Assembly: GCA_902541245.1 (NCBI GenBank)
Contig: CACBPT010000003.1
Location: forward strand, 2,762 to 66,761
Length of the DNA: 64,000 nucleotides
DNA from: an uncultured SAR86 cluster bacterium
GTDB lineage: Bacteria; Pseudomonadota; Gammaproteobacteria; Magnimaribacterales; D2472
Direction: 5' to 3'
Shown here: piece after piece, positions 10,296 through 61,596 of the stretch
Numbering within the stretch: position 1 is the stretch's first letter
Layout of the letters: every line of letters starts with the position of its first letter
The notes under the pieces: generated by a model
Databases searched by the model: none
What the model was told of the DNA's origin: nothing
What the model saw: only the letters and a program-made list of their open reading frames with translations
Made by a program: the position numbers and the translations under genes

Positions 10296-11333
10296 TTATC
10301 TTTGTTTATATGAAAACTCATCAAATCCATAATCTCCCAATAAATTCCAATGTTTGGTATGCACATTATCCTTACTTTTAGAACAAAAATATATATTGGG
10401 AGAGTCTTTTAATATTGAGAAATTACTTTGAGTGAGGCTTTTTTTTGCAAAATTACAGTCTGAAGTATTGAGAATAATTGGAAATCCCATGTTCTTTGAA
10501 AATTTACATGCCTCATTAACCAATATATCTGAGGACTGTTGAGTATGAAATGAACAATAGACAATTCTGCATATTGGTAAACTTTTTCTGATGCCAAATG
10601 AGAGACTAATAAAACTTTTTTTATCATGTAAAACCACTCTTGTTATCTTCGTTTGCTGATTAGAAAACAATCTCCATTTAAGAAATTTTTCAGTAACCCT
10701 ATAGCCATCGATACGATCAAAATCTTTTTGAATTAGAAAATCGAATAACTGATTACTTTCAAGCAATAAATAAATTTTTTGGCCCATATGATTTTTAATG
10801 TAATGATCTATATCTTTTTTTGAAACGGGGATTCCAAGCAGCCTTTTTAAAAAGTTAATTGGATTTGTGAAATGTATCCTTCTGTACCAAGTTGCACAGA
10901 CTTTGTAATGAGCGACTCTTTTATAAAAATTGTCCAACTCTCCTACAACTCCAGGCACAAAGAAAATAGGATCTCGAATTAAAGCGTCCGAGAGCAATAT
11001 ATATCCACACCCATAGTGATTTTTGTCAACCATTAGGTTATGTAACGCAGACACTTCTACAATTTCACCAGATTGAGAATGTACAAGCTTAACTCTTGTT
11101 CTATGCAAACAACCAATTACAGTATCAGGTGAATCATGACATCCAATGATAGACAAATCCTCATATCCTTTAGTATATGGCGATGCTTCATAAATATTCT
11201 TAAGAAAAGAAAAATTTTTCTGATATGCATTAAAGCCAAAATTTTTTTTTGAAAATAAAGAGTAATTTTTTTTATATTTTTCTGAAAATTTATCCAGAAA
11301 ATATCTATTTTTTTTATCTAATGAGTGACTCAA
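10296..11333 (-). CDS. Hypothetical protein, possibly a GNAT/FemAB-fold acyl- or aminoacyl-transferase
   Basis: 345 aa ORF with an apparent TTG start and no in-frame ATG for about 100 codons. The only hint of function is a GNAT-motif-A-like stretch, NHYGCGYILLSDAL. The context is 3 nt upstream of the deacetylase-GT2 fusion and 43 nt from the divergent carrier-protein gene. The function is not established. Confidence 0.35.
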   Translation of the reverse strand: MSHSLDKKNRYFLDKFSEKYKKNYSLFSKKNFGFNAYQKNFSFLKNIYEASPYTKGYEDLSIIGCHDSPDTVIGCLHRTRVKLVHSQSGEIVEVSALHNLMVDKNHYGCGYILLSDALIRDPIFFVPGVVGELDNFYKRVAHYKVCATWYRRIHFTNPINFLKRLLGIPVSKKDIDHYIKNHMGQKIYLLLESNQLFDFLIQKDFDRIDGYRVTEKFLKWRLFSNQQTKITRVVLHDKKSFISLSFGIRKSLPICRIVYCSFHTQQSSDILVNEACKFSKNMGFPIILNTSDCNFAKKSLTQSNFSILKDSPNIYFCSKSKDNVHTKHWNLLGDYGFDEFSYKQR

Positions 11334-18047: not shown

Positions 18048-18659
18048 TTAAATTTTCTTAGCAGTTACGTGAAGTTCATAACAACTAATAAAGTTTACAA
18101 AGGATTCTTCATAAATCTCTTGAAGGATGGGATGAAAATTAATGATCATTCCAAAAAATTTTCTTATCATATGCGAAATATAGTGAGGTCTATATGATCT
18201 AAATATTAAATTTACACTTTCTAACTTAATGCCCTCTATACGCTCATAAGATGGAACTTTTCTGGAAAAGATTTGATCATCAAAAAAATATGAAAATGTA
18301 TATAAACCAAAGAATTTTGTATGAGTTGGATCGCTATAAAAGAAAGAATTTGAAAAATGTGGGACCTTTATTTCAATCACACCATCAACCAATAAAACTC
18401 TCTTAAGCTCCTCAAGAACTATAGGGATATCTTCTAAATGCTCAAAAAGATGTGAGGAGTAAAATTTCTGAACTGAGCTCGAGGGGAACTGTTTTAAAAC
18501 TTCCATTAAATCGCCGACTATATCAACCGATGGATAATCTATGAGATCAATGCTAATACTATTTTCATAGTGTTTAGCTGGACCGCATCCTAACTCAACG
18601 ATAATATTTTTAAATGAATCTAATCTCTCAAGAGTATTATTTTTGTCTACAAAGCTCAT
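18048..18659 (-). CDS. Class I SAM-dependent methyltransferase
   Basis: It has the VELGCGPAK glycine-rich SAM motif. The track ORF begins at a GTG (18710) that would overlap the upstream gene by 41 nt. I prefer the ATG at 18657-18659 (MSFVDKNN), 10 nt past the upstream stop. Confidence 0.7.
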   Translation of the reverse strand: MSFVDKNNTLERLDSFKNIIVELGCGPAKHYENSISIDLIDYPSVDIVGDLMEVLKQFPSSSVQKFYSSHLFEHLEDIPIVLEELKRVLLVDGVIEIKVPHFSNSFFYSDPTHTKFFGLYTFSYFFDDQIFSRKVPSYERIEGIKLESVNLIFRSYRPHYISHMIRKFFGMIINFHPILQEIYEESFVNFISCYELHVTAKKI

Positions 18660-18669
18660 GTAACTATTT

Positions 18670-19617
18670 TTAGGGAATCTTTGATAACTGTGAGCAATAT
18701 CCTTGCCCACATACTTTGTTAAGATCTATTTTAAGACTATAAATCTCAGATATTTTGCTAACTAGGCGTTTCCACTCTTTCTTTGAAACTGGATCGTCAT
18801 GATTTGGCATCCAGCCGTCAAAAGTGTCCATTACTGACCATTCTTTTGCATGCTCAATAGAGATCTTATTATCTAAAAATAAATTAATTCCATAAACAGA
18901 ATTTGGAGACCTATTAATTAGATAGCGGAGATATTTTAAAAAATTAGTTTTATTATGAAGTAAGGTTAAAATTTTTAACTGAATGGGGAACACCAAGTCT
19001 ACAAACTTTTGAACAAAATTCATTTGAGATTCATAATTTTTTATTCTTGAAAAAAATGGTCTTATCATATAGACCCAAGGATTATAGTGCCGAATACTAT
19101 TTGAATAAATATCCACCAACAAAATACCGTTACCATTAAGATATTCACATAGGGTGTTAAGACAATCTTCGTTTCTTCCAGTATGTTGAATTACTCCATA
19201 GCATAAGACGATATCAAATGAATATTTTTTCAATGGCATGTCAAATACATCCGCCTGAATACAAATTAAATTATTAATGTTTGTATCTTGAAAGTGGTTC
19301 TCATAATTAGCATGGATTGCGGAAGAATAATCAACCGCAATTACATTTGCTTTGTATTTAAGGAGTATTTCAGTAAATCTTCCACAGCCAGCGCCCACCT
19401 CTAGAACATTTTTATTTTTTAAATCTTCAGGCTTAAGATAATTTTGAGTAAAAAATCTTTCTTCTGATTCATTTGAACCATTATATGAATCAAGCTGAAG
19501 CTTATTAAATTTATTCCATTGAAAACCAAAATTTTCATGATAGTCATCTTTGCAATGGTTAATTACAGATCTACTATCAGGCATTTTAACTGTCAAGATA
19601 TCCTGCAAAGCTGTCAT
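18670..19617 (-). CDS. Class I SAM-dependent methyltransferase
   Basis: 315 aa with the VLEVGAGCGRFTE SAM motif and an N-terminal FGFQWNKF segment. The start is ATG. Confidence 0.75.
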   Translation of the reverse strand: MTALQDILTVKMPDSRSVINHCKDDYHENFGFQWNKFNKLQLDSYNGSNESEERFFTQNYLKPEDLKNKNVLEVGAGCGRFTEILLKYKANVIAVDYSSAIHANYENHFQDTNINNLICIQADVFDMPLKKYSFDIVLCYGVIQHTGRNEDCLNTLCEYLNGNGILLVDIYSNSIRHYNPWVYMIRPFFSRIKNYESQMNFVQKFVDLVFPIQLKILTLLHNKTNFLKYLRYLINRSPNSVYGINLFLDNKISIEHAKEWSVMDTFDGWMPNHDDPVSKKEWKRLVSKISEIYSLKIDLNKVCGQGYCSQLSKIP

Positions 19618-19623
19618 GATAAA

Positions 19624-20565
19624 TTAGCTTGACTTTGAATCAGGAGAGGACTCGGAGCGATTTAGCTCCCAAAATAAAGCAATCATGCTAAAGAAAACTA
19701 ATGCGCCTAATGAATACCACATGAGCATCAATGCTCTTGAGGGTGAGTGCTTTTTTTCCTCAACAAAAGGAGATTCAATTGGTTTAAGTGCAAAATTTTT
19801 ACTCACATCAGCAAGCATTTTCTTTTCAAGCTGCTTTTGTATTAAAGATGATATTGAATTTCTGAGTTCAATTAAAAATGTTCCTGTAAGCTGAGATTCA
19901 AGAAAATCTAAAGCAGCATTTGCCTCTATAGATGATTTTTTTCTTAAGCTAAGATTAACCTCATCAACTATTAAATTTAGAAAATAATTAGCAAACTCAG
20001 GGGATATATGATCAAAAGAAATATAGATAAAATTATCTCCTTGATCTTGAAATACAGATAAAAGTTTTCTGTAGACTATGTAAGCTTGATGTACAGATGG
20101 AACTTCATTATTCCATTGTTTATTTTTAATTGAAAAAACACTTTCATCAAAGTCAATTTTTTTAGTTTCTTGATTATAGCTCTCTGCTGCGAGTAATGCG
20201 GGCAAGACATCATCAAATTTAATAAGATGCTCTAAAAATGTTTTAGATCTAATTGTTTCAACAATAATATCGCCTTTATTAGTTTTCCCTCCACCCAAAC
20301 TTACTCCAACCGCACCCGCTATAGAACTGAGCCCAGATTTTTGAACATGAGATGATGTCTCACCAGTACCAGCAACTTCATAAATGCCTGAAGACCTATA
20401 TACATTTGGTAAAGAGAACGCATAAATGAGTGTAATAGCCATAACTAAAACTAAACCTATTACAATGTTCGTTCTTTGGCGCAAAACTAACTCTAAAGCA
20501 TATGAAATGGTAATTTCATTCTCTTGGTAACCAGTTATTATTTTATTATTGCCAGAATCAGACAT
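19624..20565 (-). CDS. Wzz-like polysaccharide chain-length determinant (PCP-1 type, no kinase domain)
   Basis: 313 aa. An N-terminal Wzz-type segment (I.LVLVMAITLIYAFSLPNVYRS after a short cytoplasmic tail) and a second TM helix near the C-terminus give the two-TM periplasmic-loop topology. Confidence 0.7.
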   Translation of the reverse strand: MSDSGNNKIITGYQENEITISYALELVLRQRTNIVIGLVLVMAITLIYAFSLPNVYRSSGIYEVAGTGETSSHVQKSGLSSIAGAVGVSLGGGKTNKGDIIVETIRSKTFLEHLIKFDDVLPALLAAESYNQETKKIDFDESVFSIKNKQWNNEVPSVHQAYIVYRKLLSVFQDQGDNFIYISFDHISPEFANYFLNLIVDEVNLSLRKKSSIEANAALDFLESQLTGTFLIELRNSISSLIQKQLEKKMLADVSKNFALKPIESPFVEEKKHSPSRALMLMWYSLGALVFFSMIALFWELNRSESSPDSKSS

Positions 20566-20640: not shown

Positions 20641-21552
20641 TCATGACTTGTTGCTTAATAGCATGCTTAGCTCTTTAGTTCTAATCTCTCTTCCCAAAAT
20701 ACTAGGATGATGAGATGCATCACAAATATATTCCATTTGACTTATTGAGGGCGATAAAAATAATTGAAATCCAGCATTTTGTATTAACAAATTAAGTTTA
20801 TCCAAAGTTTCTTTGTCGATACTTATCTCGTTAAAAACTGCAGGGATAACAAAAAATACTTTTGCGTTTGGAAAATTAGACTTTATGAAATCATTATAGG
20901 CATTGAATTCAACTTCAAATTCCTTTTGTATTTGAAGTTTATGTTTGTATCCGGAAATATGATCTTGTAAATTCTCATCAATCAATAATGGATCTGAAGC
21001 TGGACATCTAAAACTTTCTTCCAGAAAATCACCAGTATTTTGATCATGGAGAAACTTATGTGGATTAGATAAAAAAGTGTTTTTTAAATGCTGGCCTAAT
21101 GAAAGATTTAGACCATGCTTTATAGAATTTAATTTACCAGAAATATCCCTAGTAAAATCATCATATGGAGGAAGATCTAAGGGATGAATGGTAGACCATA
21201 TAATATAATCAATATTTATTTTCTGCTCTGTTGAAAGCACTGAATTAATATATTCAAAATAATTTAAATAATTAAACCCATTACTGGGTAATGAAAAATT
21301 ATAAAAATCTTGATCTGTGTCTATTGATAATTGCTCAGCTGATATCCCCCACATTGCATTTGAACCGCCAAAAATTAGGCCATTAATTATTTTATTTGAA
21401 GAGGCGAATCTTTCTTTTGATTTAATAATTCTATCTCTTATGCCGTGATCATCATAGAAATAACTATCTAAAGTCAATAAACATAGATATGCAATAAACA
21501 AGAATAAGAAGTTTTTAATGTTGAAAAAGTTACCTTTGGCCATAAGCTGCAT
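20641..21552 (-). CDS. DltD/AlgJ-like SGNH-type partner of the MBOAT protein (putative extracytoplasmic acyltransferase)
   Basis: 303 aa with one N-terminal TM anchor, a GGSNAMWG block (compare the GSSE / GDS block I) and a C-terminal DASHH (DxxH block V-like). Its start overlaps the end of the MBOAT gene by 14 or 23 nt. Confidence 0.45.
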   Translation of the reverse strand: MQLMAKGNFFNIKNFLFLFIAYLCLLTLDSYFYDDHGIRDRIIKSKERFASSNKIINGLIFGGSNAMWGISAEQLSIDTDQDFYNFSLPSNGFNYLNYFEYINSVLSTEQKINIDYIIWSTIHPLDLPPYDDFTRDISGKLNSIKHGLNLSLGQHLKNTFLSNPHKFLHDQNTGDFLEESFRCPASDPLLIDENLQDHISGYKHKLQIQKEFEVEFNAYNDFIKSNFPNAKVFFVIPAVFNEISIDKETLDKLNLLIQNAGFQLFLSPSISQMEYICDASHHPSILGREIRTKELSMLLSNKS

Positions 21553-26949: not shown

Positions 26950-28323
26950 TTACTTTGAGATGATAAAAAGGTCCTTGGTGATGAAATCTACATTGTGGTT
27001 GCCCCCAACAATGTCACTGGCAATCGCAGATTTTTTTATAATTTCACTTTTATCAAATCCAGGAAAATGTGATCTAAACATATCGATCTTTTTCTTCTTT
27101 GAAAATGAAATTAATCTAGAAAGCTCTTTGATACTGATAAGGTAGTAATGCATAAAAGCTTGAAGCCTAATTGACGATAGTTTTATCTTATTTTTTCTCT
27201 TTATCTTTAGACTTTCTGAAGTCAACATAGCAAGTTCTGAAATAGAGCTTTTATTTGATGTAAAATTGTTAATGAGCGAGGAGAGTTTATAATTTTCTTT
27301 TGAGTCTGGTTGTAAATTATCAAGATTATCAATTAAACTTTTTATATCTTCATAAGTCGAAGCAAAGTGCCCAATATCATTGGTTACATCCACATAGTTT
27401 TTGCTTTCCACAGGATAGTAACTAATAACTCTTTTGTTCATCATTTGAGCTTCTATAGATGTTGTACATCCATTCTGAATTAAAACCTTACATCCATTTA
27501 TCCATTCTGGGGCTGAGAAATCTTTTGATATCTTAATATTGTCAAAAGCTTTAAAAAATTCTTGATAAAATTCTATTGATTCGGTTGGGTGAGGCCTTAA
27601 TACAAATTTAGATTCAGGAAAATCAGACAACAGCTTAGTTAACATCTCTAAAAAAAAGCCCATGACTTTGAAAGAGGTGTTGTACCAATGCATTGATTCT
27701 AATCGTTGATCTAAGGATCTTGAGGGAGTATTTAATGGTTTAAACCATCCTAAGAAATCAAGATAATGATTCACAGCAGCAAAATTTGTATTAATTAAAA
27801 TATAATCTTTTTCCTGAACTTTGGTTGATTGACTAATTAGTTTCCTTAGGTTCATATCTTGCGCTAAATCAAATCTTGCAACTCCCACGTTATGGATACT
27901 GGCATCTGAATCTAAAGATTTATAAAAATTTGTTTGAAATGGGCCCCAACAGATGATTTTATCATCTTCATTTAAAATGGTTGCATCGATTTGTTTCATA
28001 CACATTCCCTTCCAATTTGACTCTTCGCCTACCCAGATACCGCCTTCTTCATGGTAATAAAGTAATGAAAAGTCATTTTCTTTGAGTGTCTGATAATAGT
28101 CCATTCTGGTGGGGAACCATTCAGGGAAAATATTCTTCCCCAGATAAACACCGCCATTAAAGTTTTTAATAAGTCTGTTTAAAAGGTTATGCTGACCAAC
28201 AAAACATACGGTATTTTCGTCAGCTATTTCCGTTGCGAGCATAATTTTATAGTCCAGCTCTCTTACCTCAGTCTCAATAGGTATAAAAACTATTTTTTTG
28301 TTTTGCAAAGACTTGTAGCTCAT
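26950..28323 (-). CDS. Hypothetical surface-carbohydrate biosynthesis protein (possibly a KpsS/TagF-like GT-B enzyme)
   Basis: 457 aa with no TM segment. The only cues are IPIETEVRELDYKIMLA near the N-terminus, a VLRPHPTE motif, and its position between two sugar dehydrogenase genes. The function is uncertain. Confidence 0.3.
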   Translation of the reverse strand: MSYKSLQNKKIVFIPIETEVRELDYKIMLATEIADENTVCFVGQHNLLNRLIKNFNGGVYLGKNIFPEWFPTRMDYYQTLKENDFSLLYYHEEGGIWVGEESNWKGMCMKQIDATILNEDDKIICWGPFQTNFYKSLDSDASIHNVGVARFDLAQDMNLRKLISQSTKVQEKDYILINTNFAAVNHYLDFLGWFKPLNTPSRSLDQRLESMHWYNTSFKVMGFFLEMLTKLLSDFPESKFVLRPHPTESIEFYQEFFKAFDNIKISKDFSAPEWINGCKVLIQNGCTTSIEAQMMNKRVISYYPVESKNYVDVTNDIGHFASTYEDIKSLIDNLDNLQPDSKENYKLSSLINNFTSNKSSISELAMLTSESLKIKRKNKIKLSSIRLQAFMHYYLISIKELSRLISFSKKKKIDMFRSHFPGFDKSEIIKKSAIASDIVGGNHNVDFITKDLFIISK

Positions 28324-54194: not shown

Positions 54195-54229
54195 ATTTTG
54201 TTAGCTTCCTTATGTAAAAAATAATAAAC

Positions 54230-55628: not shown

Positions 55629-56375
55629 ATGGATCTAACTAATAAGACTATACTAATTACTGGCGCAACTGATGGGATTGGCAAGGTATTAGCTGAAGAG
55701 TTTTCAAAACTTGGTTCAAACATAATTCTTTTAGGAAAGAATTCATCAAAGCTTGATAAGGTATATGATCAGCTTGAAAATTCTTTTGATTCTCAAAAAC
55801 ACTTAATTTTAGAGGCTGATCTTTCTCTTTTAAATAATGAATCAGCTCACGAAATCTTAAGAGCAATCTCTAATGAATATGATGCTTTAGATGGGATCAT
55901 CCATAACGCTGCAATTTTAGGAACTATGACTCCATTAGAAGATTATGAATTATCAAAATGGGATGAAGTTTTAAACATCAATTTAAGAGCGCCTTTTCTT
56001 TTGACAAAAACACTGAAATCAATTGTTGAAAATTCAACCATGCCAAGAATTATTTTTACATCTTCTGGGGTTGCTAATACGGGTAGAGCTTTTTGGGGCG
56101 CATACTCGGTCTCAAAATTTGGTCTAAAGGGTCTTGCAGAAATTTTTACCAATGAGCTTGAAACTACTTCTTCCATAAAAGTATTTAACTTTGATCCAGG
56201 AGCTACTCAGACAAAAATGAGGGCATCTGCAAGACCAGCAGAAGATCCCAGCTCATTAAAAACACCCCATGAGCTCGTTAACTGTTACTTATGGTTTTTT
56301 AGCAGGGAAAGTTGTGATTCAAAAGTAAATTATTTTGAATATGATGATCTAGCTAAGAAAGTGACTTCCACATAA
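55629..56375 (+). CDS. YciK-like SDR-family oxidoreductase
   Basis: 248 aa with ITGATDGIGK, HNAA and YSVSKFGLKGL. The order ubiG-HAD-SDR is conserved. Confidence 0.75.
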   Translation: MDLTNKTILITGATDGIGKVLAEEFSKLGSNIILLGKNSSKLDKVYDQLENSFDSQKHLILEADLSLLNNESAHEILRAISNEYDALDGIIHNAAILGTMTPLEDYELSKWDEVLNINLRAPFLLTKTLKSIVENSTMPRIIFTSSGVANTGRAFWGAYSVSKFGLKGLAEIFTNELETTSSIKVFNFDPGATQTKMRASARPAEDPSSLKTPHELVNCYLWFFSRESCDSKVNYFEYDDLAKKVTST

Positions 56376-56937
56376 ATAAGCTCAAGTAGGTTCTATAGGG
56401 TTTAAAAGGTTCATAGAACTTCTCATCCAACTCATGCTCAGGAAAAAATTTTTTATGTGCATACTTAATACCTAGATCATTTATCGGCATAACATCAGCA
56501 TCTCCCAAATAAAACATTCTAGCTATATTGACTGACCATGGTCCAATTCCTTTATTTTCGATTAACATTTTTTCGACTTCAATGCTGGATTTTTTTAGTA
56601 AATCTGCTCTTTGCAAAGATGATAAATAAGAATTACCGATCAAACCAATTACATAATTTGCTTTTGATTTTGATAGACCTACCTCACGCAGTTTGATTTC
56701 TAAATTTTCGTAATCATTATGATTCTTGACAATTGGGTGCACTCTTGACCAAATAGTCTTGGCTGCCTTTGTTGAAAGTTGTTGACTAACAACTACTGAG
56801 GCAAGGTATTCCACTAAAGGCAGTGATGATAATTTAATCTCAATTAACTTTGATTCTTGAAGATATTTCTCAAGCTTGTTAAATTTTTTTTCTTTTGAAA
56901 CTTTAATTAGTGATCTATAAGCTTTTTCACTTTCCAT
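56353..56937 (-). CDS. HhH-GPD DNA glycosylase (DNA-3-methyladenine glycosylase II / AlkA-like)
   Basis: 194 aa with VVSQQLSTKAAKTIW and KGIGPWSVNIARMFYLGDADVMPINDLGI (helix-hairpin-helix plus catalytic Asp). Confidence 0.7.
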   Translation of the reverse strand: MESEKAYRSLIKVSKEKKFNKLEKYLQESKLIEIKLSSLPLVEYLASVVVSQQLSTKAAKTIWSRVHPIVKNHNDYENLEIKLREVGLSKSKANYVIGLIGNSYLSSLQRADLLKKSSIEVEKMLIENKGIGPWSVNIARMFYLGDADVMPINDLGIKYAHKKFFPEHELDEKFYEPFKPYRTYLSLFMWKSLS

Positions 56938-59012: not shown

Positions 59013-59177
59013 AAGTTCAATTTATACAACATATGTAATTATAAGCCTTTTTTAACACAACATCTTGTGATTTTGCATAAAAATGTTGATTTACTAGGTT
59101 TTAACTAGAGATTAAAAAGAATTAATAAGATTGGTTAAAGCCTATTTTTTTAATTTAATTGCATTAATATTTGATGC

Positions 59178-60230
59178 ATGGAATCTATTTATCACACAGA
59201 CAACACTAGAATTGTTGAAAAGTTCGATCTTATTACGCCCAATAATGTAATTTCAGAGTATCCTCTAACTGATGAAATTTCAAAATTAGTCTATGGAACT
59301 CGAAATGAAGCTAGTCAAATTCTTCATGGTAAAGATGATAGAGTGCTAGTTGTTTGTGGACCATGCTCGATACATGATCCAGTATCCGCAATGGAATATG
59401 CGCAGCTTCTGAAAGAAGCTAGAGATTCCTTAAGCTCTGATTTGCTAATAATAATGAGAGTATATTTCGAGAAACCTAGAACAACAGTGGGATGGAAAGG
59501 TTTAATAAATGATCCAGATATTAATGAGAGTTATGATGCAAATAAAGGCTTAATGCTTGCAAGAAAAATTCTAAGAGATATCACAGAAATGGGTCTTCCA
59601 ATCGGAACAGAATTCTTAGATCCTATTTCTCCTCAATATGTAGCAGATCTTGTGTCTTGGGGTGCCATAGGTGCTAGGACAGCTGAAAGTCAATCTCATA
59701 GGGAATTAGCTTCTGGACTTTCATGTCCAATTGGGATTAAAAATGGCACAACTGGAGCCTTAAAACCTGCAATTGATGGAATCCAAGCAGCGAATCATCC
59801 TCATGTATTTTTTTCAAATACAAAAGATGGTCGCGTATCAATTTATAAAACATCTGGAAATTCAGACGCACACATTATATTGCGTGGTGGAAAAGAACCA
59901 AATTTTAATCCAGAAGCAATTCAACAAACATTAACAGCATTGACTGAAGCAGATGTAAATGAATCTATAATGGTTGATGCCAGCCATGGAAATAGTCAAA
60001 AACAATTTAAAAAACAAATTGATGTAGTTGAAAACTTAGCTGAACAAATTTCTGGTGGTAATAATAGTCTTAGGGGTTTAATGCTAGAAAGTCATCTTGT
60101 TGAAGGTAATCAAAACATTACAGATAACCTTGTATATGGCCAAAGTATTACCGATGCATGCATGAATTGGGATGATACACTAAACTGCCTTCAACTTATC
60201 AGCGAAGCTGTTCAAAAGAGGCGAGGATAA
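59178..60230 (+). CDS. Class I (AroF/G/H-type) 3-deoxy-7-phosphoheptulonate (DAHP) synthase
   Basis: 350 aa with VVCGPCSIHD, KPRTTVGWKGL and IGARTAESQ.HRE. I cannot tell the feedback specificity by eye. Confidence 0.9.
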   Translation: MESIYHTDNTRIVEKFDLITPNNVISEYPLTDEISKLVYGTRNEASQILHGKDDRVLVVCGPCSIHDPVSAMEYAQLLKEARDSLSSDLLIIMRVYFEKPRTTVGWKGLINDPDINESYDANKGLMLARKILRDITEMGLPIGTEFLDPISPQYVADLVSWGAIGARTAESQSHRELASGLSCPIGIKNGTTGALKPAIDGIQAANHPHVFFSNTKDGRVSIYKTSGNSDAHIILRGGKEPNFNPEAIQQTLTALTEADVNESIMVDASHGNSQKQFKKQIDVVENLAEQISGGNNSLRGLMLESHLVEGNQNITDNLVYGQSITDACMNWDDTLNCLQLISEAVQKRRG

Positions 60231-61049
60231 TTGGATAAAGACTTATTCACTTTCTCAATTCAAGAAGCAGAAACATTGGGAATAGAATGTGCCATCGTTC
60301 TTGCTGCCACAAAAGATCTAAAAATCGCCTCATCTACAAACGATGAAATACTAGTCTTGCTAAAAGAAAAAATTCCATTTCTACAGAAGCAAGAAATACT
60401 TGATCATCTTGAAAGATTGATTAATTTGAAATTAATATCTACAGAAATTAAATCCAATAAAGCTAAGCCATCAAGTAAAAGAAATTTATATAAATTAAAG
60501 CTTCCGAGTGACAATCAGAATGCTGGTAAAACAAAGCTTAATGTCAAATGGGTCCCATCAATACAAGCTTTTGAGGTACTTGGAATGGGCGGCATAAATA
60601 AAGAATTCATAGAAAGTAAGATCAGTGAATTTAAATTATATTGGCTAGAAAAAAATCAGATGAGAGATAACTGGAATGTTTTATTTGTTGAGTTTATTAG
60701 AAGAGAGTGGGTTAAAGAAAACTCTGAAAATAAAGGCTTGCCCATTTGCATTGATGAGAGCTGGTCGCCCTCTTCTGATGCATTTGATATTCTAGGATTA
60801 GCAAATGTTTCAAGAAATGATGCATTAAAACACTTGAAGGAGTTTATACTTTACTGGAAAGAAAATGGAACTGCTTTAAAATCATGGAACTCAAAATTTG
60901 TAGATTTTGTTAAAAGAAAAGAATTTATTGGTTCCTACGAAGATAGAGATGGTAAAAAAAATTACAGACATAATGAACCAGGAGAGTTTTCTCAAAAGTT
61001 CAAAGAACGAACAAAAGATGACTCATGGGCAGAAAATCTCGAACTTTGA
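60231..61049 (+). CDS. Protein with two tandem DnaT-like (primosomal protein DnaT C-terminal type) domains
   Basis: 272 aa. The TTG start directly abuts the TAA of the DAHP synthase gene, and there is no in-frame ATG for about 120 codons. Two internal repeats share a pattern: KWVPSIQAFEVLGMGGINKEFIESKISEFKLYWLEKNQMRDNWNVLFVEFIRREW and SWSPSSDAFDILGLANVSRNDALKHLKEFILYWKENGTALKSWNSKFVDFVKRKE. Both fit the W.P......L...G......L..F..YW...G....W...F pattern of the E. coli DnaT C-terminal region as I remember it. Confidence 0.55.
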   Translation: MDKDLFTFSIQEAETLGIECAIVLAATKDLKIASSTNDEILVLLKEKIPFLQKQEILDHLERLINLKLISTEIKSNKAKPSSKRNLYKLKLPSDNQNAGKTKLNVKWVPSIQAFEVLGMGGINKEFIESKISEFKLYWLEKNQMRDNWNVLFVEFIRREWVKENSENKGLPICIDESWSPSSDAFDILGLANVSRNDALKHLKEFILYWKENGTALKSWNSKFVDFVKRKEFIGSYEDRDGKKNYRHNEPGEFSQKFKERTKDDSWAENLEL

Positions 61050-61596
61050 TCGAAAAAGCTTTATTGCTGCTATAGATAATCTTTTTTTAAAGCTTGAGCT
61101 ATCCTACCATTACCAATTTTACAAGGTATTTGGAACAGATGATAAGCTTACTGAAGCAAAAAAACTGTGGGCGGAAAGTTTAAAAAAATATCCCTCAGAT
61201 TGTATAGGCTCTGCAGTTGAAATGGTTATTCAATCTAATGATTACCTTCCAACACTTACAGAATTCCTCAAAGCGTGTTCGGAATCAATGGGTTCAATTA
61301 ATATTCCAACCCCTCAAGAAGCTTTTGTTGAAGCTCAAAAATCCTCTTCTCCCAGAGATAGCTATCCTTGGACGCATCCAATAATTTACTGGGCAGGCAA
61401 GGAAACTGGCTGGGAGTTTATAAACTCTTCAAAAGATACAAATGCTTTTCAAGCATTTACTAAAACATATATGCGCCTTGCAAAGGAAATAAAAGCAGGA
61501 AAAAACTTTGAGATAGTCTCAAAGAGTAACAACGAAATTATTGAGCCCTTAGATATTGAGCTTTTTGAGAGTTTACGAAAAAAACATGGTCTATAA
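61018..61596 (+). CDS. Lambda replication protein P-like protein (putative DnaB-helicase loader family)
   Basis: The track ORF starts at 60907, inside the upstream gene. I prefer the ATG at 61018 (MTHGQK), which leaves a 32-nt overlap. The motifs YLPTLTEFLKAC, IPTPQEAF and DSYPWTHPIIYW parallel FLPSPGQFVAWC, LPNVSEL and ESYPWKSNAHYW of phage lambda P, recalled from memory. An HMM search is needed to confirm this. Confidence 0.5.
   Translation: MTHGQKISNFDRKSFIAAIDNLFLKLELSYHYQFYKVFGTDDKLTEAKKLWAESLKKYPSDCIGSAVEMVIQSNDYLPTLTEFLKACSESMGSINIPTPQEAFVEAQKSSSPRDSYPWTHPIIYWAGKETGWEFINSSKDTNAFQAFTKTYMRLAKEIKAGKNFEIVSKSNNEIIEPLDIELFESLRKKHGL

Follow-up and report, generated by a model that had tools for sequence, protein, structure and literature searches.

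The closest described relatives of the genes considered here are dopC and dopE, a 'domesticated' lambda-like gene pair reported from Cellvibrionales and from those Oceanospirillales that are devoid of dciA (Brezellec et al., 2017, Genome Biol Evol; PMC5509034). In these organisms dopE matches PF06992, while dopC combines a lambda-O-like helix-turn-helix N-terminus (HTH_36 by HHpred) with a DnaT C-terminal domain, which replaces the C-terminal domain of O; the two genes are always adjacent and reside in cellular, non-prophage contexts. The pair was proposed as a replacement of DciA, representing a third type of loader for the replicative helicase, and was likened to both the O/P proteins of lambda and the DnaT/DnaC proteins of Escherichia coli (PMC5509034). 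Here we analyze a similar pair in the genome of an uncultured SAR86 cluster bacterium, located in a stretch of 64,000 nucleotides (64 kb; G+C about 32%) of contig CACBPT010000003.1, hereafter referred to as the window. Comparison of the encoded proteins makes it almost certain that we are dealing with the SAR86-clade orthologue of dopC-dopE, a pair acquired from a lambda-like phage. Both open reading frames (ORFs) lie where a preceding reading of the DNA letters without database searches (hereafter, the sequence-only reading) had placed them:

60231 to 61049, plus strand: dopC, 272 amino acids (aa), encoding an N-terminal domain, a linker, two DnaT-type repeats of the kind that binds single-stranded DNA (ssDNA), and a conserved C-terminal tail.
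60949 to 61596, plus strand: dopE, predicted lambda-P-like helicase loader, 215 aa if started at 60949 or 192 aa if started at 61018.

The assignment is based, first of all, on the relatives of DopE. An alignment of this protein was scanned against one genome per species, and the nearest relatives returned belonged to 43 species of the SAR86 cluster (47-55% identity); the search pattern misfits the window's own sequence (SYHYQF), which is probably why the species closest to the window are missing from the scan. The next relatives, with 31-37% identity, come from Porticoccaceae, Halieaceae, Spongiibacteraceae, Cellvibrionaceae, Pseudohongiella, OM182 and Oleispira, and the relatives outside SAR86 fall in the clades for which dopCE had been published (Cellvibrio, Congregibacter, Spongiibacter, Oleispira, Halieaceae and Porticoccaceae). 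A single clade (98% bootstrap) unites all cellular DopE proteins as opposed to lambda P and the five phage sequences that matched best, the DopE proteins of SAR86 being monophyletic within the tree (100% bootstrap). The DopE of the window is 30-34% identical to the DopE proteins of other clades and 15-23% identical to the phage P proteins.

DopC leads to the same conclusion. Directly upstream of dopE, tblastn detected a DopC homologue in 33 of the 37 non-SAR86 loci; among the remaining four, two have a short DopC ORF at this place and two have no upstream DNA. The profile of SAR86 DopC aligned end to end with a profile built from ten DopC proteins of Cellvibrionales and Oceanospirillales (hhalign, probability 100, E 8.5e-43), pairing N-domain with N-domain, the two DnaT repeats of SAR86 with repeats 2 and 3, and tail with tail. 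The number of DnaT repeats varies by lineage: there are two in SAR86 (272 aa), mostly three in the other clades (360-436 aa), and one in Congregibacter, whose DopC is short (260 aa; Congregibacter brevis, locus L076, 5196-5978, and locus L059), in agreement with the 253-residue ORF noted for Congregibacter litoralis in PMC5509034.

The sequence-only reading had considered the pair to be a poorly described variant of P-type capture, which has to be corrected, as the pair is already published under the name of dopC-dopE. The system itself is thus known, and what is new is the SAR86 lineage and the anatomical detail. SAR86, placed by the NCBI taxonomy in 'Gammaproteobacteria incertae sedis', is named neither among the lineages of the 2016 genome table nor among the strains listed in PMC5509034, and no paper combining 'SAR86' and 'helicase loader' was found in the searchable literature.

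The domain composition of DopC was derived from profile searches and from an AlphaFold2 (AF2) model with a mean predicted local distance difference test (pLDDT) score of 71.7 (about 80-89 in the domains and below 50 in the linkers). In this model a four-helix N-domain (aa 1-70) is followed by a disordered linker, two three-helix domains of the DnaT type and the tail:

60231 to 60440, plus strand: N-terminal domain of DopC, about aa 1-70, four helices (AF2 pLDDT about 80).
60537 to 60731, plus strand: DnaT repeat 1, aa 103-167, the best stretch matching PF17948 (AF2 pLDDT 83-89; Foldseek matches 4ou6 and 6aeq).
60747 to 60938, plus strand: DnaT repeat 2, about aa 173-236, the second stretch matching Pfam DnaT; PHROG 1032 'replication initiation protein' matches over aa 176-236.
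60975 to 61046, plus strand: C-terminal tail of DopC, EPGEFSQKFKERTKDDSWAENLEL, with a D-x-S-W-A motif; conserved in the family and a candidate DopE-docking peptide.

The hidden Markov model of Pfam DnaT (PF17948) matched the two stretches with an E-value of 9.8e-32 and 108.9 bits against a cut-off of 25, which bears out the two tandem DnaT domains that the sequence-only reading had seen in the first ORF. No Pfam domain other than DnaT was found in DopC, and NCBIfam has no model for either protein; homologues of DopC and DopE in marine metagenomes numbered 111 and more than 1000, respectively. The top matches of the DopC model in the PDB, as retrieved by Foldseek, were the ssDNA-binding domains of DnaT from E. 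coli and Salmonella (4ou6 and 6aeq, probability 0.99). Searches by sequence were less productive: the DopC profile reached the C-terminal domain of E. coli DnaT (4ou7, 4ou6 and 2ru8) among PDB sequences with an E-value of only about 0.2, and phmmer searches of DopC and DopE against the same sequences gave nothing useful, so that fold search and hhalign were required. As to the N-domain, that of SAR86 DopC, including the window, aligns with the N-domain of Cellvibrionales DopC (hhalign), and the latter matches the N-domain of a replication initiator on a viral contig with an independent E-value (iE) of 3.3e-14. Foldseek also returned winged helices of the Fur family, with low probability, and these matches of the model give weak support for a winged-helix-like nature of the N-domain.

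DopE is recognized by the Pfam model Phage_lambda_P (PF06992; 38.7-38.8 bits against a cut-off of 26, E 1e-9) and by PHROG 109, 'P-like helicase loader' (E 1.4e-18). The best PDB matches of its AF2 model (pLDDT 80.8) were the lambda P chains of the E. coli DnaB-P complexes 9oa1 and 9oa2 (Foldseek, probability 1.0, E 4.7e-4), and the likeness of the second ORF to lambda P, proposed in the sequence-only reading, is therefore upheld by family models and fold alike. In a profile comparison by hhalign (probability 91.4, E 9e-7, 187 columns) DopE aligned with residues 30-229 of lambda P, a range that, by the domain limits of PMC12661323, takes in domains II, III and IV. The last of these, the C-terminal lasso helix, inserts at the DH-LH junction of DnaB (PMC12661323), and according to the alignment and the model its predicted counterpart in DopE is the following:

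61549 to 61593, plus strand: C-terminal helix of DopE, LDIELFESLRKKHGL; aligned by hhalign to lambda P residues about 215-229 and helical in the AF2 model (residues 180-190 in the 192-aa numbering), with DnaB as its presumed binding partner.

The profile of DopE, when compared with PDB sequences, reached G39P of phage SPP1 (E 0.014) and not lambda P. No match to AAA+ or IstB was found in either DopC or DopE.

The pair is a resident of the SAR86 chromosome. It was present in all 45 SAR86 loci fetched, and in each of the 38 loci with enough flanking DNA the context was the same, namely rluB-scpB-scpA on one strand and aroG-dopC-dopE, followed by the gene of an RND membrane-fusion protein, on the other. 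This context is kept even in relatives with a DopC identity of 38-47%, and wherever the DNA of a SAR86 locus extends far enough, the gene directly upstream of dopC is aroG. When the relative L085 (about 90% protein identity) was used as the reference, the ratio of non-synonymous to synonymous substitution rates (dN/dS) amounted to 0.25 for dopC and 0.096 for dopE, as compared to 0.04-0.25 for nine neighbouring genes; both genes are under purifying selection. Almost all loci have both frames intact, a shortened dopC ORF being seen in locus L022. The suggestion that the module is domesticated and not prophage-borne is thus well founded, as the synteny is conserved in all SAR86 loci with flanks and selection is purifying. 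The absence of phage genes around the pair, asserted by the sequence-only reading from the same DNA, also held: when all ORFs of the window with 150 aa or more were scanned against Pfam, no integrase, terminase or repressor was revealed.

These data bear on the possibility that the pair is a leftover of prophage replication genes, either neutral or kept for a benefit unrelated to replication, e.g., for titrating DnaB away from infecting phages (superinfection exclusion). The phage ancestry of the pair is clear, an O-like gene is followed by a P-like gene in such phages as PAJU2 and lambda, on viral contigs an initiator containing a DnaT-like domain precedes a P-like gene, and an anti-phage side benefit was suggested in PMC5509034. 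On the other hand, there is no phage gene in the 64-kb window, all SAR86 loci with flanks have the pair at the identical position, purifying selection on the pair equals that on the neighbouring core genes, the frames are intact in almost every locus (the L022 dopC is mentioned above), and neutral DNA is not expected to last across a clade of small genomes. We therefore consider such a leftover improbable.

The pair is arranged as if it were expressed together with the preceding gene. The features concerned are as follows:

59178 to 60230, plus strand: aroG-type gene of class-I DAHP synthase (Pfam DAHP_synth_1, E 6.2e-91), the first gene of an apparent aroG-dopC-dopE unit.
60222 to 60233, plus strand: Shine-Dalgarno-like motif GAGGA, the aroG stop codon TAA and the dopC start codon TTG with zero spacer between the two codons, read directly.
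60949 to 61049, plus strand: 101-nucleotide (nt) stretch read in two frames, as the DopC tail and as the N-terminal helix of DopE, with a conserved peptide in each frame.

GAGGA occupies positions 60222-60226, 4 nt upstream of the TTG, and the TAA of aroG, positions 60228-60230, is directly abutted by the TTG at 60231, just as the sequence-only reading had described. The start codon of dopC is TTG in 38 of the 40 SAR86 loci analyzed, and in 34 of the 40 it is placed 0-6 nt past the aroG stop, which suggests translational coupling of dopC to aroG and a deliberately low expression. The start of dopE appears to have been misplaced in the sequence-only reading, where an overlap of about 32 nt was counted from the ATG at 61018. 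This codon is not conserved (GTG, Lys or Thr are found instead in relatives), whereas the upstream ATG at 60949 (MVKKITDIMNQ...) is conserved in 22 of 22 SAR86 loci inspected, with an N-terminal consensus of M-[KV]-K-K-[IV]-..-I-[LM]-N-Q-E. We suppose, because of this conservation, that dopE probably starts at 60949, encodes 215 aa and overlaps dopC by 101 nt; overlaps of 89-92 nt are found in the Cellvibrionales loci. The metagenome gene calls of 192 aa probably start dopE too late, in many cases.

As for the transcription, contigs of seawater metatranscriptomes identical to parts of dopC cover positions 60427-60636, 60673-60823, 60508-60658 and 60815-60965; one more contig identical to the window (60994-61144) crosses the dopC stop, and a contig of a related strain (60193-60324) crosses the aroG stop together with the dopC start. 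This coverage is consistent with co-transcription of aroG, dopC and dopE. Within aroG, the metatranscriptome contigs of two runs show 'skips' of 75-82 nt at 59521-59607, and very deep contigs of 31 nt are seen at 59454-59483; the contigs concerned are probably chimeric or of cross-species origin, lying over a conserved motif of aroG.

Taken together, the data are best explained, and in our judgement quite probably so, by DopC-DopE being a resident, phage-derived helicase-loading module. A non-DnaC module for helicase loading or restart had been proposed by the sequence-only reading, and this remains the best-supported predicted function. By analogy with lambda, the mechanism outlined below has, as we see it, a reasonably good chance of being correct. 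DopE would act on DnaB in the manner of lambda P, with its C-terminal helix lodged in the DH-LH junction between neighbouring DnaB subunits, while its globular domains, which correspond to domains II and III of lambda P, would bind the C-terminal tier of DnaB and keep the ring open for placement onto ssDNA. Since DopE has no AAA+ domain, loading would proceed without ATP. DopC would serve as an adaptor, whose two DnaT-type three-helix repeats would bind ssDNA at the origin opened by DnaA, at stalled forks, or at both, and whose O-like acidic-Trp tail would recruit the complex of DopE with DnaB. The binding of DnaB and of ssDNA, the docking of the DopC tail on DopE, and the role of DopCE as the only loader in these cells are what we infer from these comparisons.

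A narrower role, in which DopC-DopE would only reload DnaB at stalled or collapsed forks and another factor, such as DciA, would load it at the origin, has also to be considered. The DnaT domain is known from a protein of the restart primosome (the PriA primosome of E. coli), and fork reactivation was raised as a possible role of DopC in PMC5509034 itself; besides, the SAR86 DNA covered here is the 64-kb window together with loci no longer than about 17 kb. In the window, no match to DciA (PF05258), DnaC/IstB or Pri proteins was found among the ORFs scanned. The slot of dciA in other gammaproteobacteria lies between lpxC and secA, a region that is not in the window, where gyrA and genes of aromatic amino acid biosynthesis are found instead. 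Against the restriction to restart is the fact that in the published clades dopE is the sole gene that tracks the absence of both dciA and dnaC (PMC5509034), the DopE of SAR86 belonging to the same clade as the published ones; furthermore, two loader systems would be less economical in a streamlined genome, and lambda P itself loads DnaB at an origin. A restart-only role is, in our opinion, rather unlikely, albeit less so than the prophage leftover discussed above.

Several points weigh against the loader role or against the strength of the data behind it. The role is deduced from homology and from the absence of dciA and dnaC reported for other dopE-bearing clades, and the searchable literature contains no experiment on any DopC or DopE, later papers only citing the proposal of 2017. 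The DopE tree was built by neighbour joining with only six phage sequences, and the metatranscriptome contigs may include residual DNA. The first 80 aa of DopC gave no match by hmmscan or in Pfam, and the winged-helix N-terminus, which the sequence-only reading had offered as possible, is weakly supported, by the low-probability structural matches to the Fur family. Finally, in hhalign comparisons of DopC with lambda O and with PAJU2's O-like protein only the 8-10 C-terminal residues aligned, and not significantly.

These few residues belong to one of the best-conserved parts of the DopC family (EPG..F..R..D.SWA), in which W266 is invariant and P250, G251, F257, R260, D263 and A267 are nearly invariant. 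The C-terminal end reads ...LTDTSWAE in Cellvibrionales DopC and ...DANDTSWAVG... in the O-like protein of PAJU2; the end of lambda O, ...DLTNTDWIYGVDL (motif region DLTNTDWI), resembles the DopC tail as well. An acidic-Ser/Thr-Trp motif, D-x-[SD]-W-[AI], is observed, both in phages and in cells, at the very C-terminal end of proteins whose genes directly precede that of a P-type loader; the sites compared were those of the window DopC (61032-61046), lambda O (L086, 187-1086) and the O-like protein of PAJU2 (L084, 2105-2914). Genetic studies of lambda have assigned the interaction with P to the C-terminal part of O. As the motif is shared with O, whose C-terminal part contacts P, we hypothesize that the tail of DopC may be a peptide docking on DopE.

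Other parts of DopC have counterparts on viral contigs. The O-like proteins of lambda, PAJU2 and PHB09 carry N-domains of the Phage_rep_O or HTH_36 type and no DnaT domain, and a tblastn search of the window DopC against 50,697 phage records yielded no match. On the IMG/VR contigs L095 (4449-6147) and L096, the C-terminal part of an initiator matches the DnaT repeat of DopC and is followed by a P-like or helicase-loader-like gene, Ant and HNH genes being located nearby, while on contig L099 (4407-5282) a DopC-type N-domain (iE 3.3e-14) and a DnaT repeat are followed by RusA. The DnaT repeat of DopC is also matched by PHROGs 1032, 1408 and 2509, all of them 'replication initiation protein'. Since a DnaT-type architecture is seen on viral contigs, the design 'winged helix plus DnaT domain' exists in phages and, judging by these profile matches, seems to be older than its capture by cells. 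The module may therefore have been captured already with the DnaT domain, and a gain of this domain after the capture, as implied by PMC5509034, is not required.

A more far-reaching combination of these propositions can be put forward only tentatively, and as a whole we find it doubtful: that SAR86, having no DciA, DnaC or DnaI, initiates replication solely by means of a lambda-derived, ATP-independent loader; that the DopC tail peptide, encoded in the 101-nt dual-frame stretch, stems from O-type initiators and recruits DopC to DopE; and that the architecture of winged helix and DnaT domain was born in phages, cellular proteins with DnaT domains, perhaps including DnaT of E. coli, encoded beside dnaC, having been captured along with their loaders.

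One could also suppose that DopC is still an initiator for an origin in or next to its own gene, either a secondary or the main chromosomal one, as the lambda origin is located inside gene O. Almost all genes are on the minus strand over 0.5-54.2 kb of the window and mostly on the plus strand thereafter, and the sign of the GC skew flips as well (54195-54229 and 59013-59177), so that both changes fall near 54-59 kb, just upstream of the operon. However, DnaA-box-like 9-mers occur in the window at chance level (21 versus 20.3 expected), with none in 52-63 kb; no iterons, i.e., no repeat family of more than two copies, were found in 59.0-61.75 kb; and for each gene the sign of the skew matches the coding strand. 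Given the lack of a DnaA-box cluster, the switch of orientation and skew reflects the coding strand and not an origin, and an origin beside the operon was rejected on these three grounds. In this the locus agrees with the dopC loci of PMC5509034, where the skew minimum was at gidA-dnaA, not at dopC, in 13 genomes. The initiator role of DopC at an origin of its own is, consequently, largely refuted and very improbable, more so than any other alternative mentioned here.

The neighbours of the pair are, by Pfam, scpA, scpB, rluB, the class-I DAHP synthase gene and the RND pump, the same core genes that had been named from the letters of the DNA. Other core genes of the window, located after a polysaccharide cluster, are pgsA, uvrC, pgi, pyrF, pheST, infC, rpsA, cmk and aroA, and also tyrA, pheA, serC, gyrA and pntAB besides rluB and scpAB. 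A 194-aa HhH-GPD-like ORF (56353-56937) shares 23 nt with a short-chain dehydrogenase gene on one side and 11 nt with rluB on the other, and its dN/dS of 0.25 is the top value among the neighbouring genes tested. The surface-polysaccharide cluster occupies positions 481-30572, is lower in G+C (about 0.30) and comprises rmlABCD-type genes, two asparagine-synthase-like amidotransferases, several glycosyltransferases, an EpsG-like polymerase, an MBOAT acyltransferase, an ABC exporter and two UDP-glucose dehydrogenase paralogues, as well as five ORFs with no Pfam match (10296-11333, 18048-18710, 19624-20565, 20641-21552 and 26950-28323). It looks like a strain-variable island.

If DopCE is a loader, a third way of helicase loading operates not only in Cellvibrionales and some Oceanospirillales but also in SAR86, a highly abundant group of the surface ocean that is not routinely cultured in the laboratory. 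The genes annotated as P-like and DnaT-like in SAR86 genomes would then be core replication genes and not prophage remnants. The SAR86 version is trimmed, with two DnaT repeats and a short N-terminus of DopE, and could serve as a compact construct for biochemistry, in which the conserved tail motif is a concrete, mutable candidate for a contact of the O-P type.

In comparison with the published dopCE, the SAR86 locus is similar in gene order, overlapping frames, the match of DopE to PF06992 and the chromosomal, non-prophage context, as well as in the homologous N-domain, the DnaT repeats and the D-x-S-W-A tail of DopC and in the lack of iterons and DnaA boxes. It differs in belonging to the SAR86 lineage, in a DopC of 272 aa with two repeats, in a DopE only 30-34% identical to the published ones, in the TTG start that abuts the aroG stop, and in its context, since the combination of aroG upstream and the RND pump downstream is seen in none of the non-SAR86 loci. 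With lambda it shares the succession of an O-type and a P-type gene, the alignment of DopE with domains II-IV of P and the resemblance of the DopC tail to the end of O. It differs from lambda in that DopE is only 15% identical to P, DopC lacks the Phage_rep_O domain and lambda O the DnaT domain, no origin lies inside dopC, the genes are part of a cellular chromosome, and they overlap by 101 nt as against 4 nt.

The likeness to the dnaT-dnaC genes of E. coli consists in a protein with a DnaT-type ssDNA-binding domain being encoded directly upstream of a phage-derived loader of DnaB, and the DnaT domain is shared with E. coli DnaT by both sequence and fold. DopC was nevertheless rejected as an orthologue of DnaT, as it has two tandem DnaT domains and a different N-domain, so that only the C-terminal domain is shared; and DopE, in contrast to DnaC and DnaI, is of the P type, has no ATPase domain and is not DnaC/IstB-like. 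G39P of SPP1 resembles DopE weakly: the DopE profile reaches 1no1 with the E-value given above, Pfam Inhibitor_G39P gives E 0.018, and the target-normalized TM-score of Foldseek is 0.75 over 69 residues. Membership of DopE in the G39P family was rejected, the likeness being confined to one small helical sub-domain and below the family thresholds, which points to a distant structural relation. Phage initiators of PHROGs 1032, 1408 and 2509 have the same architecture as DopC, a winged-helix N-domain and a DnaT-like C-domain, but those viral initiators stand in phage contexts (Ant, HNH, RusA), contain a single DnaT repeat and are 29-37% identical to DopC.

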